Positions 8,231 through 62,959 of a stretch of 64,000 bases of DNA are shown here, piece after piece (the first letter of the stretch is position 1; the number at the start of each line of letters is the position of its first letter). Below the pieces are notes generated by a model that had not been told where the DNA came from, made no database searches, and worked only from the letters and a program-made list of their open reading frames with translations. The DNA is from Heptranchias perlo (Eukaryota), in assembly GCF_035084215.1 (NCBI RefSeq), contig NC_090352.1:26350001-26414000 (forward strand), given 5' to 3'. The translations under genes and the position numbers were made by a program.

Positions 8231-10602
8231 CTGCGGAATGCAGCGTTCAAAATTTTCTCCCCCTTTTTCCGATGACCAAGAACATCAAACACATCTAATT
8301 CATTTCATTCAAACCACAACAATAAACAAAAATTAATTACCAGATAGCTGAGGCTTTTCAGATCCATAAGGACACTTTTATTTGACCAACTACCAGATGG
8401 CAACTTCAACCTCTAATTCAATTCCTACGGTTGTAATTATGCTGAATAGTACCGTCCAAAAGGCTTAAATAATTGACGATGTACATTCCAAATTGATTAT
8501 TTTTGGACTGATCTGCTATAAAGAAAACAACTTCCCTTCATCATGAGGAACTACACCTTTGTTCAGCTGTTATTTTCAATGCAGGGAAGTTTCTGGTTAG
8601 AAGTAAAGTGTAACAAATCACTTTTGATCTTTGTCAACATAAAAAAGATCTTCCATCCTCTGAAAAAAAACTGATGTTTTGTTCATCCACCCTCTCTTCC
8701 TAAAAAAAAATTATACAAGCCAGAAGCTTGAACTAAATGTTGCCTCAGCTTGTTCAAACTATCTCAACAGTGCACTGTATTTATTTTACAAAGTTAAATA
8801 AATACAAGCATATTTCACTAACTTCACAAAATCATAACCACCATTCTTAAGTTATTGGCAAAGAGCTTTTCCAAAACAAATGTTTTAAAACAAAGTGTTG
8901 GAGTAAACAAGTATGGTTACACAAAGGACTGAAGTAGTAAAATTAAATGAAAATATGCCAATACATATCTAAGAACAATGCATCCATGTGAATGAAAACA
9001 ATTAATCTAAAATGTAAGACTTTTTAATGTGTTGTTCAGCAGTTGGAGAGAGGAAGGTAGGGAACATTTCATGTTTTGTGCTTTTTACGTGTTACTTCTT
9101 CCACATTTTGGGAGGTGGAGTAAGATTTCAAAATTTGCTATTCAAGTCTAAATGTATAGCTGCTTCTTTAAAGACTTTATCCCACAGGACTATTATTCAG
9201 CCTAAACATTATAAGGACACAACAGTGCACAAATGTCTTTACTGTGTTTTATGATTTTAGCTTCCTGATAAAATTAAATTATTTGAAGACCATAAGATCT
9301 TATTGTTAGCATATTTTGTTAATATTGGATAGACAGTCATGGATCAGCAATATTGCTTAGAACTCTCCCCAGGAGCGTCATCGTACACACGTGCGCACAC
9401 ACACAGTAGGTGTATCAGTAGGATACCAGCATCTTAACAAAAGCAATACTCATTCCAAAGCTCACTACGTAATCAATTCACTTCTGCAGAATCTTAGTTA
9501 TATCAGAGTTTTAGAAAGCTATCAGCACACCACAGCCAAGCTTCAAGTTTGTTTTTGAGTGGTTGAACACCATTGTTTTCATGGTGTTCTTCATTTAAAG
9601 ATCACTTTGTGGCAGCTCAATGCAAACACCTTTTAACTGGTCATTTTCAAGTTCACATCTCAGAGTTCTGCAAGTCTCTCAAATATCTTGTGAAGTGTTT
9701 TTTGAGGCTTTTCAATCAAGTGGCTAAATGGGACACCAGTGAAATGCTGCTGACTGGTATGCTCCATTCAAGTGTCACGTAGAGATGATCTATTCCAGTC
9801 GTGTAGGTAATCCATTCCACCTTTTTAGCTAGGACAAAAAATATGGTAGCAACTAGACTACAAACCAAATAAAACTGAAAAGGAAAGGCCAAACTTTTGA
9901 CAGGACTGTGGAGGGGACAAGGAAGTTCACAAAATCTTATTGATTACATTAAAAAAGGTGTTACATACTGTATCACAGTGTGCTACAATTAGCCATGTTG
10001 CAGGTTTATGATCAGATAAGCAAATCAAGAGAATTCAGAGTACAGCAGCATAAATCTTAATCAATAAGACCTCACAGCAAGTACAGTTTTCCCATAAACT
10101 CAACAACCATTTCCCTAACCCACTTGTTGGTCTCACATTGAAAAACATACAACCAAACAGCTGAACAGCTAGTGCTGGCAAACTTTACACTCAGCAGGAG
10201 CAAACTGCTGCAGTCCTGGAAGCAGCGGAGGTCAGGAAGCCATTCACTTGCCCTAGCACACGCTGGCCTCTACATTTCCTGTGTGGATGAGATCACTTCC
10301 AAAATAACCAGGAGTTATAGCTCTTCTCTATTAAAAGCTGCTGTACACAAAGGGGTCATTTGTAAACCATGAAAAATATCAAGTATAGTCCCCACTGCAC
10401 ATTAAAAATAACTTGGAATTTCAAATCAGTCCCTTTTTAAATTGTTTAGTATGATCCATTGCAGTCATAAGCTTTAATGGTGCAATTAATTCTACATAAA
10501 AAGTTACTTTTACATCATGTTACAGTATTACATATTGTTGCAGTACAAATAGTCATGTATCCTTCATTTAATCTTATATACATAGTAGTTTGGTAGAATT
10601 GG

Positions 10603-11434
10603 TGTTTACAGAATGCCCCTGCAACTGCCCGTTGCCAAGGCAATCACCGTGTTCAGACAGAGAGGTGTCACCTGCAGAACCCCCGAATACACATTCAACA
10701 AAAAAACAAACAGGAAAAAAAAGAGAGGCAGAAACATCCGGAAGGCAGAGAAAGCCAGCAAATGACCCATTATATTAAAAACAGATAACATTTGTTCGCT
10801 GGTGGGGTAACGTGTAGCGTGACATGAACCACGCAACAATCGCCAAACAGGAGGGTTCCCTCCCAGTCGGGGAACACTTCAGCAGTCATGGACATTCATC
10901 CACCGACCTTCGGGTAAGCGTACTCCAAGGCGGCCTTCGAGACACACGACAACGCAAAATCGTCGAGCAGAAATTGATAGCCAAGTTCCGCACCCATGAG
11001 GACGGCCTCAACCGGGATCTTGGGTTCATGTCACGCTACACGTTACCCCACCAGCGAACAAATGTTATCTGTTTTTAATATAATGGGTCATTTGCTGGCT
11101 TTCTCTGCCTTCCGGATGTTTCTGCCTCTCTCTGTTTTTTTTCCTGTTTGTTTTTTTGTTGAATGTGTATTCGGGGGTTCTGCAGGTGACACCTCTCTGT
11201 CTGAATACGGTGATTGCCTTGGCAACGGGCAGTTGCAGGGGCAGTCTGTAAACACCATGTATTGTTCTATATGTATAAATGCGTAGGCTTCGAGGAGCTC
11301 CTGAACATTTACCTGAGGAAGGAGGAAGTCTCCGAAAGCTTGTGAATTTAAAATAAAATTGCTGGACTATAACTTGGTGTTGTAAAATTGTTTACAATTG
11401 TCAACCCCAGTCCATCACCGGCATCTCCACATCA
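10603..11434 (+). mobile_element. Young Penelope-like retroelement, 5'-truncated, with inverted 5' segment and 12-bp TSD
   Basis: The ORF fragment PVGEHFSSHGH..DLRVSVLQGG...RKIVEQKLIAKFRTHEDGLNRDLG is the C-terminus of a GIY-YIG endonuclease. 10601-10830 is an inverted copy of about 11023-11256. TSD TGGTAGAATTGG at 10591-10602 and 11435-11446. Confidence 0.88.
11307..11347 (+). ncRNA. Minimal type I hammerhead ribozyme motif in the PLE 3' end
   Basis: AUUUAC-CUGAGGA-A-GGAGG(AAG)UCUCC-GAAA-GC-UU-GUGAAU: stem I, conserved core, stem II, palindromic AGCU stem III. Confidence 0.75.
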
Positions 11435-13764
11435 TGGTAGAATTGGAATAGTGGTGGACAATCAACCATGCCAATCAGCAAAATTAAAAATGCATCTTAA
11501 TAACATTTCTTGCATACATAAGTCACTTTTCTTCTTCCCCATTGACTACACATATAATCTGAGTTTTTCTCCTTTCTAATTGGTTATTTTTATTATTCAA
11601 ATTATATTATGCAAAATCTCAGTACATTCCATCAATTACCAAATTTGCCCCCAGTCACATATCTCAGCCAGAAAAATAACTCCTCCCCCCCCCCAGCCAC
11701 AGTTCTAGATATAACAATATCCAACAAAACCAGATATCCTCATCTCTATATACCCAAAAAAGCTATCATACAACACGTTTAAAAAAATACAGAAAGTGGC
11801 TCCAGCAATAATTCTTCCCGCACCCATGCTTCAGCGCATCCCTGTACACTTTCGCCCACAACTCCCTGTCGCAACCCTCCCCCAACGACTCACCCCAAGC
11901 CTCCCAACACACCCCCATCCAACCAACATCCCATCTCCCAAAAAGACATGAAATTCCTAAGAACGTCAGACTCCAATACATAACAGTCGTTTAAAGTGAT
12001 TTAAACCCAAGTTTGATGGAAGTTTTGTTCGGAAACTACATTCACCTGCAAATGTGATCTATGGATCACAGAGGGCTCCAATAAAACATTTCATCACAAC
12101 ACTATCTTTTCAGTTGTTCTATATCTGAAACAAATTTTTTTCCCACATTTACCAATCCTCTTTTTACAAAAAAAGTAAGGAAATAGCTGCAATTTACACT
12201 TATGTAGTGCCTTTAATGTAACATACATCCCAAGGTGCTTTACAGAAGATCAGGGGACAAAAAGCTGGATAGAGAAAAGAGAATATTGGGGTGGGGCTGT
12301 TCAGATTTAATTAATTTATATGAAAGGCTGTACAAACACATGTAACTTTATAACAGCATTTAAAAAGTGAAAAAGATTTTGAAGTTAATTTCCTCCATAA
12401 ATTCGAAGGCGGCCATTAGGGAGCCATTAGGCAGGCTCAATTCCTACAACCAAATACAACCTGCATGGAAAATTACTCTACAACACCATGTTGTCCACAG
12501 CAGACGATATTCTTTGTCTGCTGTTCAGTGGTCTTAGTGCTGCGAATTAGTCAGAAGTCAGACTGGAGAGACTCAAATCGGAAGTAGTTGGAAATGAGCG
12601 AGTTGTTGCATGGCAATGACTCATTCAAGATCCTTGGAGCGCTTAGGAGAATTAAGCAATCAAGGAGTGTTGTGGCGATAGTGGTTTTAAGAGGAGGAGG
12701 AAAAAAGAAAGTGGTCTACAACTTGCATTTATATAGCACCTTTAATGTACAAAAACTTCTCAAATGTGTTTTACAGAGGAAAGAAAAAGTAATGGATTCC
12801 AAAACATGGCTGGAGTGTTGAGAGATGACAAAGCTTGATCAAAAAGATGAGGAAGCCTTTTAATCAATAATTGCATATTATAACAGTTTGTAATTTAAAC
12901 AAACAAGCAGGATACAATAACATATGACTTATAAGCAATTACTTTTCAATAATTAGATGATTTCCGGTGCCTTCGCACACAGGTATTCAAGACCAATGGC
13001 AGAATTCAGGTCCAGCATTGTTAGAAGGTGGGGAACAAAGCAGAGAGAGAGAGAAAAAAAAAATTGAGAAAGAAAGAAAAGATACCATGCCACTACAAGG
13101 CCTCAGAGTTACGAGGTTTCTTTTGCTATATTCCTCGGCTTTCACAGATTTTGGACATTGCTCCATTTTCTGTTCAAGATGTATGGAGGCTTGGAAGACC
13201 TGCTTAGTTGGGGGGTCTCTGCTCAGGGGGAGTCGGGGCAGGGAGTTGATTCATGCTGGTTTTCCCCACAGCCTTTCGACTGCCACCATAATTTACTTTG
13301 CTCTGAGAACTTTCACTACTACATTTTGCAGTTTCTGCGTGTTGCTCCTTTTCCTGCTTTGCTATTTATTTCTTACGTTTCCGTTTATGAGTTATGTAAA
13401 TCAAGCATTTCTTGCTTCTTCTGCAAACTTGCTTAGCAAGGAGAGGTGGGGGGATTGTTGCGCTAATACTACAACTTAGCCACCAAAGTTCCTTGACAAC
13501 TCTCTCCCTTTGCCACTATCAGGCCTCAGATTCTCAAAGTTCATTTTGCTTGGGGAAATTTTGTACTTCTTCTTCCATAGATTTCAATCTTTGCTCAGTT
13601 TCTTGCTCTGCCTCACTTTCAGGTTTCCCTGCTTGTTATTTTCAAAAACTTTGGGCTTTTGATTACATTCAAATAACATCTACTTTACTGATATCACAAT
13701 ATTATCTGCTCAAGGCAGTTCTTAGGAGTCCACAATTGCTACTTACTTTGAAAGACAAATACAT

Positions 13765-20131: not shown

Positions 20132-20942
20132 TATGTGTTTTGACAATGAAATTCAGTGTTCACTCAAAAGCAAAATATGTGGATGCTGGAAATCTGAAAT
20201 AAAAACTGAAAATGCAGGAAATACTCAGCATGACAGGCAGCATCTGTGGAGAAAGAGTGTTAACTGGATTGCAGCAATGGCTATAGGCAAAAGCCACAGT
20301 GCATATATTTGACACACACATATATAGATAATTCAGAAATACAATAGTTTTATACCGTGCCCAAAAAATTGGGCACTATGTAAAACTATTCGCTATCATC
20401 CGTTTTGCGCACTGACCAATTTCACATCCTCACGTTTCACTGCACCTAAAGCAAATGATCTATTAAACATGGCACATGAAAGGTTGCGAAATTTTAAAGA
20501 CAGCAGCACAGAGGTAACAACTAGAGCAAATAAAAACAAATTGGGTTTGCCAGCAAAGCTCCTGAGGGTATAACAGCTTTGGGAACCACATCATTTTTAA
20601 CATGCAGAATTGTAATCATAGAATCCACTTGCAACACATTCTCTAATATCCATACCAAAAAGAAATGCATTATGATGCACTGATATATAATCCCACTGCA
20701 CAATGAGAAATCTTAAAAGATTACAGTTCAGTAATAAGTGAACAAGTGTCTTATTTGTGGGATGTCAGATTCTTGCTCGATAAAGATCTCAGAATTATCA
20801 TTTAGCAGGACCTCTGACTTGATAAGTTTCAAACAGTAGAATTCCTCCGGTGGTTTGGAGCTGCAACAGGACTACAATTTTAAAGCTGAAGACTGGATAG
20901 AATCATAACGAGAGTTAAAAAAAAAATTAAATTAGCACTTAC

Positions 20943-21953
20943 ACCAAAGGCATCTCTGCGAATCCCTTTATGGTTTCTCAACCAAGATCGGCTGAGCTCA
21001 TTCAACTCAAGAATTGGCTGCACTTTCAATCTCACAGTGTCTCCAGATTGACGGATCATCTCAACTATCTCATCCCGTGATTTATTTTCAACATTCCTGC
21101 TGTTAATTTCCACCAGTCTATCGCCTGGCACCAGACCCAATGCTAGATCTTTAGTACCAGCCCCAGGCTCTGCAAAATGAACCATCCTGCGGTATGCTTG
21201 TCCATCAGGTCCTCTGTCCAGCATGGTTGTTCTCCGCAAAGAGAACCCAAAGTCTCCTGTATTTCTTCTCTGCAATACAAGCTCTCTAGGTTCCGTAGGC
21301 AGAGGTGGTACTACAGGAGGCAGCCGTAGATCAGCAGCAAAACTTTTATCCACAACTTCTGGAATCTGAATATTAGGACTTGCCATTAACACAGTATTTG
21401 ACAAATGTCTCGGCATTTCTTCTAGGTACTCAAGCAGTAGACCGTCATTTCTCATTTCTACTTGTGGTGAAGGAGTTGCAGAATTTTCTGATGGAGTTGA
21501 CACTTCTGATGTTGACTCTTCTCGACTCTTTTGTGAAAAAGAGAACCTCTTTACTAGTTGGACTGAATTCTGTTTAGCAAGAGAGCCAAACAGAGCTGCT
21601 CGCTGAAGCACTGATCCCTTCACAGTACACTCATCTATTTTGAGATCATCACTGGAACTGGCAGTACTCAATTGCTCGGAATCAATAATCATGCTTCCTC
21701 TGTTACTAATAGTGTCTGAATCAATATCAGTAAGATTGAGATCTGAACTACTAGCTACTTTTATTGGGATAGGGGCTGAAATTTCCAGTTTGGTCTTTGA
21801 TTCCCGCTTTGAAGATCGACTCAAATTAAAGAGCCCTCGACGTAGACCAACTTCCTCAAGACTTTTCAATTCTGCTACAGACATTTTCTCCCTCTTTTCC
21901 TTCTTTTCTTTCTTCTCCTTTTTATCTTTGTCTTTTTTGATTAAGTTAAACAT
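20943..21953 (-). CDS. MYO18A: Unconventional myosin-XVIIIa, first coding exon (KE-rich N-terminus + PDZ domain), alpha isoform
   Basis: [34 protein letters not shown]... and PDZ ([40 protein letters not shown]...GDRLVEIN) match the MYO18A N-terminus. ATG at 21953; donor GGT|GTAAGT at 20943/20942 gives 1011 nt, phase 0. Likely acceptor (ctgattgcag|) at 22031/22030. Confidence 0.96.
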
Positions 21954-22699
21954 TTTCAAATTTTACTTTTGTGCAAATTATTAAAGAATGAAAAAATAAT
22001 TAATAAAGACAGAATCTTTTATTGGTCCAGCTGCAATCAGGGGCAAGTCACTTTTCTTCTTATTCAGGTATGACCAGGTGTAACGTTCTGTATCTGAAAT
22101 GACATCAAAATGATAGTTACAACAGAAATACAAATATAACAGTAAACTTAAGTACACAATTCCAATATCCATTTTTCTAAAAAAAACTATATTCCCCTAG
22201 TTACTATTTCAAATAGGAAATATCTACGGTTATCCACATCACCTCAATTTTGGATAGTATGAGTATAAATAATAAAAATTAAAATGCATCCAGATGCACC
22301 ATAATATCTTTAAAGTATTTCTACTTCCCAAATAGCTAATTTAGTTAACTTGCTAGTCAGTACAGAACTGAGTCATGTAAGCCAGAATGGTCCCAAGTTC
22401 AATTCCTGATCTGTGCTGAGTTAACTGATCACAGCCAAGTTACTGGTGTAACTGCTACAATTAGCCAGTGTTCCTAAGCAACGGGGAGGAAGAAGTAAGC
22501 TACGGCCAAGTTTCCCTCAACCATCATCCTCAGAAAATCCTGATGGCAAAAGTGTATATGTGGATGCCAAGTGAGGAATGGATTGGGCTTGACTGTGATA
22601 TTTCCCAACAGCCTAGTGGTTGGGAATTAGACAGTGGTGTCTGAGAGATGATCTTAGGAGGTATATAGGACTGTTAAAAAGAAAAAGTTAACCTGGAAT

Positions 22700-31640: not shown

Positions 31641-31854
31641 AATGCAGGATGTTGCTGCCAACCTGTTAGAACAAATCTTCAATAAAGTAATTTTGGGGAT
31701 AACAGAGTATCACCCACTGAATAACTTGCTTAGTGAATTTATATGTAATCTTCTCCTTTGTTGTTTTGACTAGAACAACCCACATGATCCTTAAATTAGT
31801 TAGAAATTGTTCAGCTTTAGGAACGCAGTTAGTGTTCAATGTGTTATAAAATGT

Positions 31855-32087
31855 ATGATGTGGAGATGCCGGTGATGGACTGGGGTTGACAATTGTAAAC
31901 AATTTTACAACACCAAGTTATAGTCCAGCAATTTTATTTTAAATTCACAAGCTTTCGGAGGCTTCCCCCTTCGTCAGGTGAACGATTTCACATCGTTCAC
32001 CTGACGAAGGGGGAAGCCTCCGAAAGCTTGTGAATTTAAAATAAAATTGCTGGACTATAACTTGGTGTTGTAAAATTGTTTACAATT
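31855..32087. mobile_element. Palindromic non-coding PLE insertion (96-bp perfect arms, 5-nt loop)
   Basis: Arms 31891-31986 and 31992-32087; TSD TTATAAAATGTATG at 31844-31857 and 32086-32099; same family as 11300-11434. Confidence 0.9.
31995..32035 (+). ncRNA. Minimal hammerhead ribozyme motif (mirror copy on the minus strand at 31943-31983)
   Basis: GUUCAC-CUGACGA-A-GGGGG(AAG)CCUCC-GAAA-GC-UU-GUGAAU. Confidence 0.75.
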
Positions 32088-33007
32088 ATAAAATGTATGT
32101 CTGCTTGCTGAATAAATTTAGAGCTTAATAATTGATCAAATGCTTTGTAACATGCTTACTGCTAAGGTATTTCTAGGTTAGCAGAATAAAGGAAGGTAAT
32201 AAAGATGAGCAATGTTTAGAAGAGGGTTGCAAACCAGGGGGAAAAGAAGAAGGGGGCGGGGGGAAAGGAAGAGAACGAAGGGAAGGGAAGAGAAAAGGAA
32301 AAAAGAGATGGGAGGAAGATTAAAAAGACAGAAGGGTGAAGGTAATGTGGGAGGGAGATTTGATAAACTTTAGGAAGAATTTTTCGATAGTATGTCTGAG
32401 ACGCCTTTGTCATTGAAATCTTCAGACAAACTGTGGTATCTGGGATACATCGAATGCTTCAATAAAAAGTATTAACAATAACAATAAACATTATCCCACC
32501 TCCTGCTGGTATTATCCCCCTGAAAGTTATCAGCCCAGCTCCTGTTCCAATTCATTTTTTAGTGTCCATTTTGGTTAAAGGGAGTTATTTTGGCACCAAT
32601 ATACAAACCAGTTTTGCATTAATTAATTTATTTTTTTATTTTTCTAAGTTATAATTGAACAGACAGCAGAAGTGAAAACATTCTGAAAAGTGACACACTG
32701 GGAAATATCAAATTGTGTATTTTTTAAAAAGACAGATCTTTCTAGTACAGGCAATACATAACTAATGTTAGTTATTAACATTTAGCTTGTTGATTACAGC
32801 TCAATATTGTTGTATAATATTCTGACTTTGTTATCACAAACATACACCAAGGTTCGCAGAATCAAAGGGAGTTTATCCATTACTTAATAACATTTAGACA
32901 TTAGGTAAAAGTTTTTTGTTCCAAGACTAATGGTACACAGCCATATGACAAGTGTCATGTACTAAGTGTGACTTATTGTGATGCACTTCTTACTCAAGGT
33001 GTCAATC

Positions 33008-33989: not shown

Positions 33990-34509
33990 ATGATTTTATC
34001 TTGGAACTAAGCTCGCCTTAGATATTTGGGTGGGGAACCTGAAAATCAAATGAGTGTGCCGCAATCTGTGATCACAACTCAGTTGAAGGTGAGTATTTGT
34101 GCTTCAGGGTTTCCCACACGCCAGATCCAGCCAGCATCGGGATCGGGGGCGGGGGGGGGGGGGGAGGTGGTCAGCCAGAATCGGGATCGGGATAAGGGGG
34201 TCAGCCAGAATCGGGATCGCGATAAGGGGGTCAGCCAGAATCGGTAAGGGTTTAACTTTTGCAAAACACAAAGAATTAAGTACCTCAACTATTTCAATGA
34301 GGTACTTTGCTCTTTTAAGTAGGGGCCTGTTGGCTTGAAGTGGGGGCGGGACTTCCTGGTGTTTGTTGTATGCAGGCAACCAAACGCGCCTGGGTCAAAC
34401 CCGGAAGTGGACGCATTGGAGCCGGGATGTGGTCCCGCTCCAAAAAGCTGTTATATTAACCTCCCACCCGTCCCCAACCCACCCGTTCTTGGGGGTTAAA
34501 ATTACCCCC
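33990..34509. mobile_element. Harbinger-type MITE with an internal 31-bp tandem repeat
   Basis: Right TIR GGGTTAAAATTACCCC; GGTCAGCCAGAATCGGGATCG(G/C)GATAAGGG repeated about 2.5 times at about 34168-34244; left end uncertain. Confidence 0.55.
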
Positions 34510-38074: not shown

Positions 38075-38305
38075 GTGATGTGGAGATGCCGGTGATGGAC
38101 TGGGGTTGACAATTGTAAACAATTTTACAACACCAAGTTATAGTCCAGCAATTTTATTTTAAATTCACAAGCTTTCGGAGGCTTCCTCCTTCCTCAGGTG
38201 AACGTTTGTTGGAATGTTTGTTTCACCTGAGGAAGGAGGAAGCCTCCGAAAGCTTGTGAATTTAAAATAAAATTGCTGGACTATAACTTGGTGTTGTAAA
38301 ATTGT
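38075..38305. mobile_element. Palindromic non-coding PLE insertion (84-bp arms, 19-nt loop) with a hammerhead on each strand
   Basis: Arms 38119-38202 and 38222-38305; TSD TAACCAATAAA at 38064-38074 and 38305-38315. Confidence 0.9.
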
Positions 38306-38561
38306 AACCAATAAACAAATTCACAGTGTAAACACACTTTATAGTATTGCATTGGTATGAAAACTCACCCATCCGTTTATGGCGGTTTGCACTGAATTTT
38401 TTTAAGCTGTTTTAGAAGTAGGTCATCTAGCACCTCGAGCTGTTTCCACCATTGTATTAGATTGTGGCTGATCTGTACCGCAACACTATTTGCTCACCTT
38501 TAATCCATATCCCTTGATACCCTTACCAAATCTATCCATCTCAGACTTGAAAATTTCAATT

Positions 38562-42787: not shown

Positions 42788-43870
42788 TTAAAGCCAAACC
42801 TTCTTGCTATTTCCAGGCTTATTTAGACTTCCACGTTTCAACTTGCCACATTCCTTGTCATCAAGATTATTTTTTATGCTTTCTACTGATTCAGATTCAA
42901 ATGAAATTGTTGCCTGACTTGGGAGGTAGCCTGGTCTCTGCTGCAATAATCGTGCCGATGACTTCAATATTAAATTGTCATAAAATGAATCTTTTAGTGC
43001 CAAGAGAAGAGGGTTTTTCTGTGAATACTGATGCACTGCTTCCCTTTGTTTCTTCTTCTTGCAACAGGGTGAGCAAGTAGTACATAACACACGTGCAATG
43101 TAGACCCAGCCCAAATAGTGAAGCTCAACAATGTTCAGCAAGAAGCATGCTAGACTGACACAAAACATAAAGTTCAAAAAGATGGTCTTTTCTGTTGCTC
43201 TGGATACGAAGCAGTCTGTTGTGGTTGGACATGGATAGGTCCAACAGACAAACAAACAAGGAACATTAAATCCATACATATAGTACTGTCCCAGCAAAAA
43301 TGTTATCTCCATAACTGCTCTGAGCATTACATGTATAACATATACAGTTAAAACCTTATTTGATAGATAGATTGGGTCACTGCTTTTATTACTTTTAATA
43401 TGCTCTACTTCATATTCTCCATCTCTTGACTCAAATTCAATTTCCTGTGAGGTGCTCTCATCAGTTCTTTGGCTCAAGATGCCATCTTCTGGGAGATGTC
43501 CACTAGTTATAGGACTGTTTGATAACTCCAGCTCATGTGCTTTTTCCATTTCATATTTTTCATCTTTTGCTATTTTGTGCAGGACATACACTATGTAGAA
43601 AATGGATGGTGTCGAAACCAGAACAATTTGGAAAACCCAGAATCTCAGGTGCGAGATAGGTGCAAAGGTGTTGTAGCAAACATTGTTACACCCTGGCTGG
43701 AGGGTGTTACAGGTGAATTTGGACTGCTCATCACTGTATACTGCATCACCCACTAATGTGACCAGCAGAATACGAAAAATCAGCAACATTGTCAACCAGA
43801 TCTTCCCAATCACTGTGGAATGGTGCTGAACTTCAGTTAGGAGACGGCCAAGTAATGACCAATCACCCAT
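42788..43870 (-). CDS. Gap junction protein (connexin), Cx39.2 / gjd2-like (delta) group, 360 aa, single coding exon
   Basis: MGDWSLLGRLLTEVQHHSTVIGKIWLTMLLIFRILLV; extracellular loop 1 C-x6-C-x3-C (CNTLQPGCNNVC), loop 2 C-x4-C-x5-C (CWTYPCPTTTDC), SRATEKTIF motif, four hydrophobic TM segments. Acceptor (tttctacag|) 7 nt upstream of the ATG. The subgroup call is from recalled similarity to fish cx39.2 and is less certain than the connexin call. Confidence 0.95.
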   Translation of the reverse strand: MGDWSLLGRLLTEVQHHSTVIGKIWLTMLLIFRILLVTLVGDAVYSDEQSKFTCNTLQPGCNNVCYNTFAPISHLRFWVFQIVLVSTPSIFYIVYVLHKIAKDEKYEMEKAHELELSNSPITSGHLPEDGILSQRTDESTSQEIEFESRDGEYEVEHIKSNKSSDPIYLSNKVLTVYVIHVMLRAVMEITFLLGQYYMYGFNVPCLFVCWTYPCPTTTDCFVSRATEKTIFLNFMFCVSLACFLLNIVELHYLGWVYIARVLCTTCSPCCKKKKQREAVHQYSQKNPLLLALKDSFYDNLILKSSARLLQQRPGYLPSQATISFESESVESIKNNLDDKECGKLKRGSLNKPGNSKKVWL

Positions 43871-44883
43871 TTTTTATCTGTAGAAAAGAAAGGAAATTAT
43901 ATTGACATCAGCCAAATGTGGTATAATATTAACTTAACCTAATATTACCCAAGTGGCTTGAGATAACTGTTTTCTTTGACAAGGTTCTCCTTTAAGTTAG
44001 TAACTACGTTAACACAAGAATAATATGCCATGGATATTTGAGTTTCAACTAATATAAATAATTCAAAGTTTTGAGGGGTAAAAAAAATAGAATGTCCCAT
44101 TGTTAGTGGTTTGGTGCCATTGTGGTGGAAATGACTGCAGCACACAGGAGGAATGAAGTTGTGCATTATTTCCAATTGAGTCCATAAATTGTATGATTAA
44201 TGCTTTCAGATGCTTTTAGAGATTGCCATTCACACAAGTAAAATGATAAATAGTGTCAGCACTTTCATTATAAAGCAACCATTTTGCTTCACCATAAATA
44301 TTTTTTTTAATCAAGGTTTACATGTATGTATTTGCATGCCTAGACACAAAGCACAATCCCATGATGCAGTCTTACTTGTACTGCTGCTATGGTAGCTTTC
44401 TAAGGTGGTTTAGTGACGTCCATGAGATGTAGTATCAATCCAGTGATACCAAGCCAGTTTTCATCATATAATTGCAGATTCAAAAATCAACAGATAAAGT
44501 TAGCACAATTACTTTGCATGATTTGTATAGAAAATATAAGACATTAACTTTTCTGGCTGGAGTATTCCAAATTGGATTTTTTTCAATAAGGTGTACCAAT
44601 ATAAATTGATGCTTTCTCATGAACACTATCTCCGTACATTTATTTTTATACATTTCAAAATTTTTATATTATATTTAATTTTTATAACTCCAAATATAAA
44701 TATGTGACTACAACTGCAAAGTATCAATCATTAATACTACCTGACTTTGTTCCAATTTACAATGGGTTCCTATGGTGAGGTACCAAGGAAAATAAACAAT
44801 TGTGCTTTGAAAAATTGTGAACACTAGTTCTACAAATATTCTTCTTATATGGCAGTGCAGAGAATGTATAGGTATATTAATGG

Positions 44884-49644: not shown

Positions 49645-50030
49645 TAATTGGCTCAGTGAGTTTAACCAGTGAGTAGCTGAGCTATAAAGCCCTAGTTTGA
49701 TTCCCAGTCTGTGTTGAATTAGTCCATCACAGTCAGGGCAGCAGTTGAGACATTACAATTGGCCTTAGTGCCCTGGGTTAGAGAGCGGAAAACTGGCCGT
49801 GATTCATGCTCGATTGCTATCTAGTGAATTTTGCTACGTGAGTATATGGAAGTCGGGGAAGGACGGAATCAGGTTTGACAGTGTACCCTCCCACAGTCAA
49901 ATAACCTACCGACAATCAATGTCAAGGGTCAAACATTAATAATGGCTATTTGGGTGAGATACTGGCATGTCCCCAGTACCCAAGAAACTGTATGCTAGTC
50001 AATGCCTTCAAGACAGGAAGGGAAGGCCCA
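49645..50030 (+). mobile_element. Second tRNA-derived SINE family (unnamed); related copies at about 3410-3650, 22350-22620, 34670-35150 and 57775-58070
   Basis: Shared tggctcag(t/c)..ggt, ctgagccat, gttc/ttgattcc..tctgtgctgagtt, tacaattgg, tctagtgac...gctggaaagtg blocks. Confidence 0.6.
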
Positions 50031-50860
50031 TAGAATAAGCAAATAAAAGTGACTTTTATCTGATTAGTCTGGGCTACATTGGAGCCTAGATCACAGAGAT
50101 GAACCTTTCACAACCTTTGTTGCGAAGATTAGTCCATGTACTAAAGGTAAAGTGGCAGAATTGATAGAAAGTGGAGAGTACCTTTGAGAGTGCTACCACT
50201 ATGTCAAGGTTAACATCTTAGGGTGCCTATGCAAAGTGGTGATAGAATTCAGGAAACTACCAAGCTCACTAAAGGCATGAAATATGAAATCCCTCCAAGG
50301 GGCTGTTTGACACAGTTTGTATTTGCAAAGAATGCAGTATAAATCCAGGCTTCCTCATATCTCTTTCATTATCTTTCTTGCAAAATGTACCACTTCATAT
50401 TTATGTATTTGTTACAAATCTGCCCACTCACCGAATCTGTCTGTGCCCTCCTGCAGTCTCCTGCATTCTTCCTCATAGTTTTCCATGCCTCGTAGCTTGA
50501 TATCATCAGCAAATTTTGATAGTTTCTCGATACACATATCTTGTATGTAGACAAAGAGCAAGAGAAATCCGAACACCGATCCCTGGAACACACCACTAGC
50601 TACTCCTGCCAACCAAACATCCATTTACTACTCTCCACTTTCTATCAATTTTGCCACTTTACCTTTAGTACATGGACTAATCTTCGCAACAAAGGTTGTG
50701 AAAGGTTCATCTCTGTGATCTAGGCTCCAATGTAGCCCAGACTAATCAGATAAAAGTCACTTTTATTTGCTTATTCTATGGGCCTTCCCTTCCTGTCTTG
50801 AAGGCATTGATTAGCATACAGTTTCTTGGGTACTGGGGACATGCCAGTATCTCACCCAAA
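49949..50860. repeat. 232-bp near-perfect inverted duplication with a 448-bp spacer
   Basis: 49949-50180 is the reverse complement of 50629-50860; two mismatches seen. Confidence 0.92.
50410..50628 (-). mobile_element. CR1 reverse-transcriptase fragment
   Basis: SGVFQGSVFGFLLLFVYIQDM..LSKFADDIKL (GVPQGSVLGP and FADDTKL motifs). Confidence 0.8.
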
Positions 50861-62547: not shown

Positions 62548-62669
62548 ATGATGTGGAGATGCCGGTGATGGACTGGGGTTGACAATTGTAAACAATTTTA
62601 CAACACCAAGTTATAGTCCAGCAATTTTATTTTAAATTCACAAGCTTTCGGAGACTTCCTCCTTCCTCA
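62548..62669 (-). mobile_element. Truncated copy of the same PLE 3' end in CRYBA1 intron 3
   Basis: Matches the reverse complement of 11314-11435; truncated inside the hammerhead core. Confidence 0.88.
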
Positions 62670-62959
62670 CATCAGGAATCCCATAAAAACAATTTATGGT
62701 TTGTTTCCCCTCAAATGTTTTGATTCAAACCAGCATTCTGTGCCTTCTCTACGAAGTAAATCAGATTTCAAAACTAGTTTGCACAACATGCACATCCCAT
62801 ACATGAATGTGTGTGGGTCACATCAACCTTCATGGTATGTGCTTGTCGTGGGGCCTGAAACTGGCTTTCCCATTCCAAAAAAATATAAAAGAGCTAAGTG
62901 ACAGGATAACTCTGGTCTGTGAACCCACTGCATGCACACATGCCCTAATCTCAGGATAG

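Follow-up and report, generated by a model that had tools for sequence, protein, structure and literature searches.

The hairpin at 31855..32087 of the window, by which we mean the whole 64,000-nucleotide stretch of Heptranchias perlo DNA analyzed here, is the 5' UTR part of the pseudo-LTR (pLTR) of an autonomous Penelope-like element (PLE). We consider it probable that stubs of this kind, in which the tail-bearing 5' UTR lies head-to-head with itself, are made anew at each insertion by both nicked target strands priming on uncut RNA. We directly observed the family of the element, the anatomy of the hairpin, variable junctions, a 12-bp duplication, symmetric loop orientation, microhomology at the outer ends and a truncation peak tied to a TATA box. 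The hairpin is real, young and ordinary in kind, with a layout already described for the Penelope-like class.

Two perfect 96-bp arms (31891-31986 and 31992-32087) enclose a 5-nt loop, and the corresponding RNA folds into a single hairpin (-180.9 kcal/mol; z = -26.5), a stability that none of 200 shuffles attained. The hairpin is flanked by a 14-bp direct repeat whose left copy (31844..31857) contributes its last 3 nt and whose right copy (32086..32099) contributes its first 2 nt to the element ends, which are the overlaps of the repeat with the 233 bp. Coordinates and fold confirm the target-site duplication (TSD), arms and loop described in the earlier note, which had not described a one-sided 36-nt tail (31855..31890, - strand) that extends to the ORF start codon in intact copies. 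Because the tail is present on one side only, the hairpin is asymmetric. We place the putative outer reverse transcriptase (RT) start site at the outer end of this tail, the meaning of tails for PLE priming being taken from the open text of PMC11167929. The tail-bearing long arm (31891..31986) carries the element 5' UTR in sense orientation on the - strand; the tail-less short arm (31992..32087) carries it on the + strand and stops at the putative inner RT start site. The junction (31985..31991, + strand) comprises a 2-nt microhomology common to both arms (31985-31986) followed by the 5-nt loop, which is element sequence and part of the short arm, as it matches the upstream sequence in copy L057.

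With the tail found only in the left arm and the five loop bases only in the right, neither arm contains the other, and the hairpin is therefore not a simple copy of one arm. The second arm had been proposed to be copied from the first on account of two variants, CUGACGA and GGGGG, which are indeed present in both arms and missing from the three other copies in the window. As these variants are also found in copies with a single arm, with every combination represented, they are subfamily alleles. The three sister copies are a hairpin with a different, genome-unique junction (38076..38312, + strand), a longer inverted copy that includes the TATA box, the 3' UTR and the C-terminal end of the ORF (10600..11435, + strand), and a single-arm stub whose truncation falls within the hammerhead core (62548..62670, - strand).

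The window hairpin is flanked by two ORFs on the - strand: a 359-aa open frame that encodes a PDZ domain close to its end (20880-21962; E=1.7e-8) and a single-exon, 360-aa ORF matching Connexin (42788-43873; E=2.6e-91). Pfam returned no match for the 23 other ORFs among the 25 scanned of 59 listed in the window. The window also holds a 232-bp inverted repeat (49949-50180 and 50629-50860; 99% complementary, 448 bp apart), unmatched to the Penelope family, and three tandem 30-nt repeats (34165-34254).

The assignment to the pLTR 5' UTR follows from longer copies, in which the piece is linked upstream to a conserved TATA-like box and then the 3' end of the ORF and in which, downstream, the tail passes directly into the start codon. 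The box reads exactly TATAAA in 22 of 24 long arms. Copies L095 and L132 contain an intact 902-aa ORF, with its start codon at the tail end, that includes an RT domain (RVT_1, E=3.3e-10) and a GIY-YIG domain (E=6.3e-4; 20.4 bits, slightly below the Pfam cut-off of 22.6). L095 is a tandem of two consecutive ORFs whose tail matches lie 3,086 bp apart, corresponding to a unit of ~3.08 kb. The family thus combines the attributes of EN+ Penelope-like elements, namely an ORF with RT and C-terminal GIY-YIG, tandem pLTRs, an inverted truncated copy with a tail, and a TSD. The Penelope-like origin put forward in the earlier note is borne out by this ORF and the tandems; its description of the piece as a PLE 3' end is right only in the pLTR sense, as the piece is the 5' UTR/pLTR directly before the start codon. 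The family is also young and abundant, as had been claimed, with 25,210 exact genomic matches to the 39-nt tail end and near-identical full-length matches to the hairpin (see below). A second, related subfamily (L176, L183, L187-L189, L203) differs in arm sequence and stem II variants and likewise forms hairpins and long inverted pairs.

Insertions were sampled from the first 100 listed tail matches, in the first 10 Mb of one contig. These gave 97 distinct contexts and, once seven rows had been dropped (five internal tandem junctions recognized by the sequence upstream of them, one of these a reciprocal view, one further such junction and one host duplicate), 90 insertions. Inverted structures make up 55 of the 90, and 48 of the 90 are hairpins of at most 300 bp (111-283 bp), with the hammerhead core present in both arms in 27 of these 48. 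Host-like DNA patches or a second fold-back occur in the center or at the 5' junction of L041, L056 and L036. For 43 of 55 inverted insertions, the second arm begins 32-37 nt inward of the tail end, typically at ~34 nt. The TSD measures 12 bp in 40 of 64 cases and 12-14 bp in 61 of 64 (45 of 55 in the tail-anchored sample), and a simulated 12-bp duplication was read as 14 bp in 935 of 7,533 trials. The outer ends overlap the duplication by 1.64 and 1.72 nt, compared with a simulated null of 0.75 and 0.87 nt (0 of 10,000 resamples as high). Such an excess of microhomology at both outer ends is expected if each nicked strand primes on the RNA. The flanks of L038, L053, L093, L114 and L170 share a similar AT-rich target within another abundant repeat, a CR1-like LINE as judged by translated frames, which hints at a preferred site.

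The two arms reach to different extents: the tail arm extends further in 14 of 48 hairpins, the other arm in 21, and the arms are equal in 13, while a second count over 47 gave 25, 20 and 2. Across the genome, the loop of one haplotype lies in either orientation relative to the tail at equal frequency (27 vs 27). The exact center of the window hairpin occurs in 12 copies, four in the same orientation, seven flipped and one without a tail in view; orientation calls on these 12 matches stood in for a direct count of the flipped exact haplotype with its tail. Loop inversion after insertion could be a source of the 1:1 orientation. The two arms agree completely in 25 of 30 hairpins, compared with 9% between hairpins, and differ in the other 5, one of which has 4 differences; the differences fall partly at segregating sites.

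These arm comparisons bear on the closest alternative, which starts from the same element and priming sites and in which the first-finished cDNA would fold on a short inverted match, copy itself and pair with the shorter cDNA. The high arm identity fits two cDNAs made from one RNA or one source locus and fold-back alike, and is to that extent a point against twin priming as the sole account. Many junctions, that of the window copy included, have a loop of 3-10 nt with a short inverted match at its base, the kind of structure that fold-back would leave behind, and the process would account for the 1:1 orientation provided that folding is open to either cDNA. Self-priming has moreover been proposed for PLE palindromes, there on an antisense template, in the open text of PMC3846280. 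However, loops of 0-2 nt, found in 10 of the 48 short hairpins, are hard to form in this manner. The unlike arms also argue against it, as do the centers of L041 and L056, with their long one-sided spacers and patches of host DNA. We therefore rank twin priming followed by end joining first, on the strength of the 0-2 nt loops and unlike arms, and fold-back of either cDNA second, as an unlikely origin of the stubs.

The earlier note had left two branches open, a by-product of integration and a retrozyme-like unit. The latter would make the hairpin a non-autonomous retrozyme-like or MITE-like unit, itself transcribed and mobilized in trans. In its favor, each of the 40 BLAST candidates that were scored, out of 689 first-look candidates, aligns over the whole 233 bp at 98-100%, a similarity that is misleading with regard to copying since the search favors look-alikes, and 821 hairpins have their turn-around no more than 10 nt from that of the window copy. 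Those 821 are heterogeneous, however, with 35 junction types among the 50 examined; the short-hairpin junctions sampled are distinct in 48 of 48 cases; an identical junction is seen on differing subfamily backgrounds; and the complex junction of the sister hairpin at 38195 has a single genome match, itself. As junctions vary, loop orientation is 1:1 and the variants occur in all combinations, the hairpins are not copied as one unit, and the recurrence of identical hairpins reflects repeated joining of the same ends at one and the same short microhomology. We found single head-to-head insertions and saw no head-to-tail arrays of hammerhead units such as define non-LTR retrozymes, and the orientation and junction counts do not indicate a fixed unit that propagates on its own. 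Furthermore, there is no TATA box in the stub, which probably cannot give rise to further copies. The retrozyme-like or MITE-like reading is thus largely refuted and we regard it as highly improbable, while formation as a by-product of integration is supported. A stub could nonetheless retain promoter activity since the D. virilis Penelope promoter is internal and TATA-less, as reported in the open text of PMC2377424.

Arm ends are concentrated at a set distance from the TATA box. The farthest arm end lies 27-33 nt past the first TATA base in 28 of the 69 insertions ending in the reference span, where 2.9 would be expected under uniformity. The TATA-to-core spacing differs by subfamily (38-40 vs 44-47 nt). 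Over the 44 ends lying 5-25 nt upstream of the core, which the spacing test covered, the median end is TATA+30 in both spacing classes (n=21 and 23; p=0.30), whereas the end-to-core distance differs between them (-10 vs -16; p=0.014). Because the peak falls ~30 nt after TATA in two classes of different TATA-hammerhead spacing, the turn-around likely marks the RNA 5' end, where the cDNAs would run off. In the subfamily of the window copy, TATA+30 is the A of a pyrimidine-rich initiator-like motif. The short arm of the window hairpin starts on the A of this initiator-like motif, as judged by copy L057, and position 31985 is the predicted first RNA base; the RNA start site of the element is in this sense a prediction from sequence. 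Ends 10-26 nt after TATA in 12 of the 69 insertions, together with 21 of the 90 insertions running through the whole reference, mean that upstream or read-through RNAs are also needed. Hairpin centers of L146, L159, L065 and L145 carry A/T runs of 6-7, compared with 3-4 in long copies, and the longer runs may reflect slippage or untemplated addition at the template end. No splice joints over the 5' UTR were listed in the sequencing-run contigs, so an intron that had been supposed to separate the cut site from the tail is unsupported.

We also counted ends around the predicted ribozyme cut. Matches numbered 166 for ends at the cut, 131 one base upstream and 221 one base downstream; among 30 inspected per set, 26, 16 and 16 were true ends (one point-change row reclassified in the downstream set), giving estimates of ~144, ~70 and ~118. 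Any pile-up of ends at the predicted cut site is therefore weak at most. Among the 50 listed out of 110 hairpins with a turn-around near the cut, four have a single arm that stops at the cut and none has two. Loop-less palindromes centered on the 6-nt palindrome of the hammerhead (32 of the 50 listed) were considered as proof of two annealed cDNAs and rejected, because a deletion between the 6-mer copies of a longer hairpin gives the same product. That the turn-around reflects RT stalling at the hammerhead or a ribozyme-cleaved template, and not the RNA start, carries very little probability: arm ends do cluster just upstream of the core and the estimated ends at the cut exceed those one base upstream, but the end peak tracks TATA and not the core, ends occur at roughly the same frequency one base further downstream, both-arm ends at the cut are absent from the near-cut hairpins listed, and the window copy crosses the cut site on both arms.

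Each strand carries one candidate hammerhead, as the earlier note had recognized. The hammerhead of the short arm (31995..32035, + strand) has a stem I of 6 bp and a stem II of 5 bp, with C3 at 32001 and a predicted cut after 32029; by symmetry of the perfect arms, its mirror in the long arm (31943..31983, - strand) has C3 at 31977 and a predicted cut after 31949. Core boxes, palindromic stem III positions and an extra base before stem II bear out the assignment to the minimal type I class. The minimal core pattern returned 86,045 genome matches, compared with 28 for a reversed control; the core boxes belonged to the search pattern, so their invariance in the matches is built in. Stem II pairs vary among G-C, A-U, C-G and G-U in the pattern matches listed. 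Stems I and II show compensatory changes in 18 hand-picked, related variants, with 89% of cells paired and two-sided changes in 3 of 11 pairs; 5 of 500 stem-pairing shuffles scored as high on pairing and 263 of 500 on pair count, the variants being related to each other. An Rfam scan over the window did not report any hammerhead family at E<=5, and Rfam miRNA/sRNA matches over the hairpins scored under their gathering thresholds.

Activity of these hammerheads within the hairpin is another matter. Constraining the RNA to the hammerhead fold carries an energy penalty of 71.3 kcal/mol for the whole hairpin, compared with 0.8 kcal/mol for a single arm, and in a transcript from either strand the antisense arm precedes the sense arm. 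In a transcript through the hairpin, the two arms are thus predicted to pair over 96 bp and to enclose the hammerhead in duplex. At this folding cost, the ambisense ribozyme activity proposed in the earlier note is unlikely and that proposal is unsupported; the hammerheads of the stub would be passengers, locked in the duplex if transcribed. As reported in the open texts, minimal PLE hammerheads are inactive as monomers in vitro and show low activity as dimers (PMC4209133), and the hammerhead of Poseidon of Anolis carolinensis (PAc) requires protein (PMC11167929). The PLE hammerheads described in PMC4209133 share with ours the core boxes, the extra base before stem II, palindromic positions 15.2-16.2 and the lack of a stem III loop, and include opposite-strand pairs 100-700 bp apart, as here. 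In contrast to them, stem II measures 5 bp here and the ribozyme is a candidate known from sequence.

We infer the following steps from promoter to end joining for the twin-priming origin of the stub. The TATA/initiator promoter of the pLTR would yield an RNA beginning ~15 nt before the hammerhead, and the element endonuclease would cut the target with a 12-nt stagger. One 3' end would then prime at the tail site and the other ~34 nt further in, synthesis of both cDNAs would continue across the still uncut hammerhead until run-off at, or close to, the RNA 5' end, and the cDNA 3' ends would be joined through 1-6 nt of microhomology, followed by fill-in. For the window copy, copying of the short arm would have continued to the predicted +1 base and that of the long arm would have ended 7 nt short of it, leaving a joint with a 2-nt overlap. 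This resembles L1 twin priming, in which both target nicks prime on the RNA and the cDNAs are joined by microhomology. L1 twin priming inverts non-overlapping parts, whereas here both cDNAs would span the same stretch and produce a palindrome.

Biochemical data agree with two-strand priming. According to the open text of PMC11167929, a PLE protein nicks and extends both strands in vitro; it works with uncut RNA, and extension begins at two internal sites located on either side of the tail. PAc shares with our model the two RT start sites around the tail, the nicking and extension of both strands, the predicted dimer and uncut RNA as the main template. In PAc, the RT starts fall within the ORF, at 111-118 nt, and there is overlap between the hammerhead and the start codon, whereas both are located in the 5' UTR here; its main text reports no homology at priming, whereas we detect a small excess of ~0.9 nt per end. 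That main text offers no explanation for inverted copies and leaves later steps unvalidated.

The insertions described for EN+ PLEs in the open texts on Adineta vaga Penelope (PMC3846280), on PLEs in PMC8557442 and on D. virilis (PMC2377424) share with those reported here the head-to-head inverted 5'-truncated copy, a 30-40 bp one-sided tail, the TSD, partial tandems, a TATA/initiator-like pLTR motif and palindromic junctions. Unlike in the Adineta vaga and D. virilis elements as described there, the ORF-less stub is the commonest product here (48/90), the tail ends at the start codon and the duplication is mostly 12 bp. For palindrome formation, PMC3846280 proposed antisense self-priming; our data are better explained by two cDNAs templated by sense RNA. 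Non-LTR retrozymes, as described in the open text of bioRxiv 10.64898/2026.07.22.740005 (see also PMC7229834), are likewise non-coding, PLE-derived and endowed with a type I hammerhead; those of bioRxiv 10.64898/2026.07.22.740005 are head-to-tail tandem units, whereas the window hairpin is head-to-head, asymmetric and probably formed de novo.

The value of the hairpin lies in the data that it provides on how PLEs form inverted repeats, the origin of which is described as undefined in the open text of PMC8557442. In the openly searchable literature, we found no paper naming twin priming as their source. The orientation count and the TATA-spacing test are what is added to the known PLE picture, and the 27:27 orientation, the TATA-tracking ends and the outer-end microhomology together provide a concrete, testable model. 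Extrapolating from the first 10 Mb of one contig (48/90 x 25,210), we estimate ~13,000 short hairpins in the genome. Perfect dsRNA is a substrate of Dicer and ADAR, and any host transcripts running through the hairpins would supply perfect dsRNA against the leader of the element itself. Finally, we give even chances to a broader reading, in which these thousands of stubs would record symmetric twin priming by a dimeric RT that copies the front of the RNA twice, their centers would map the transcription start site, and the 1:1 orientation would settle the choice between sense twin priming and antisense self-priming.
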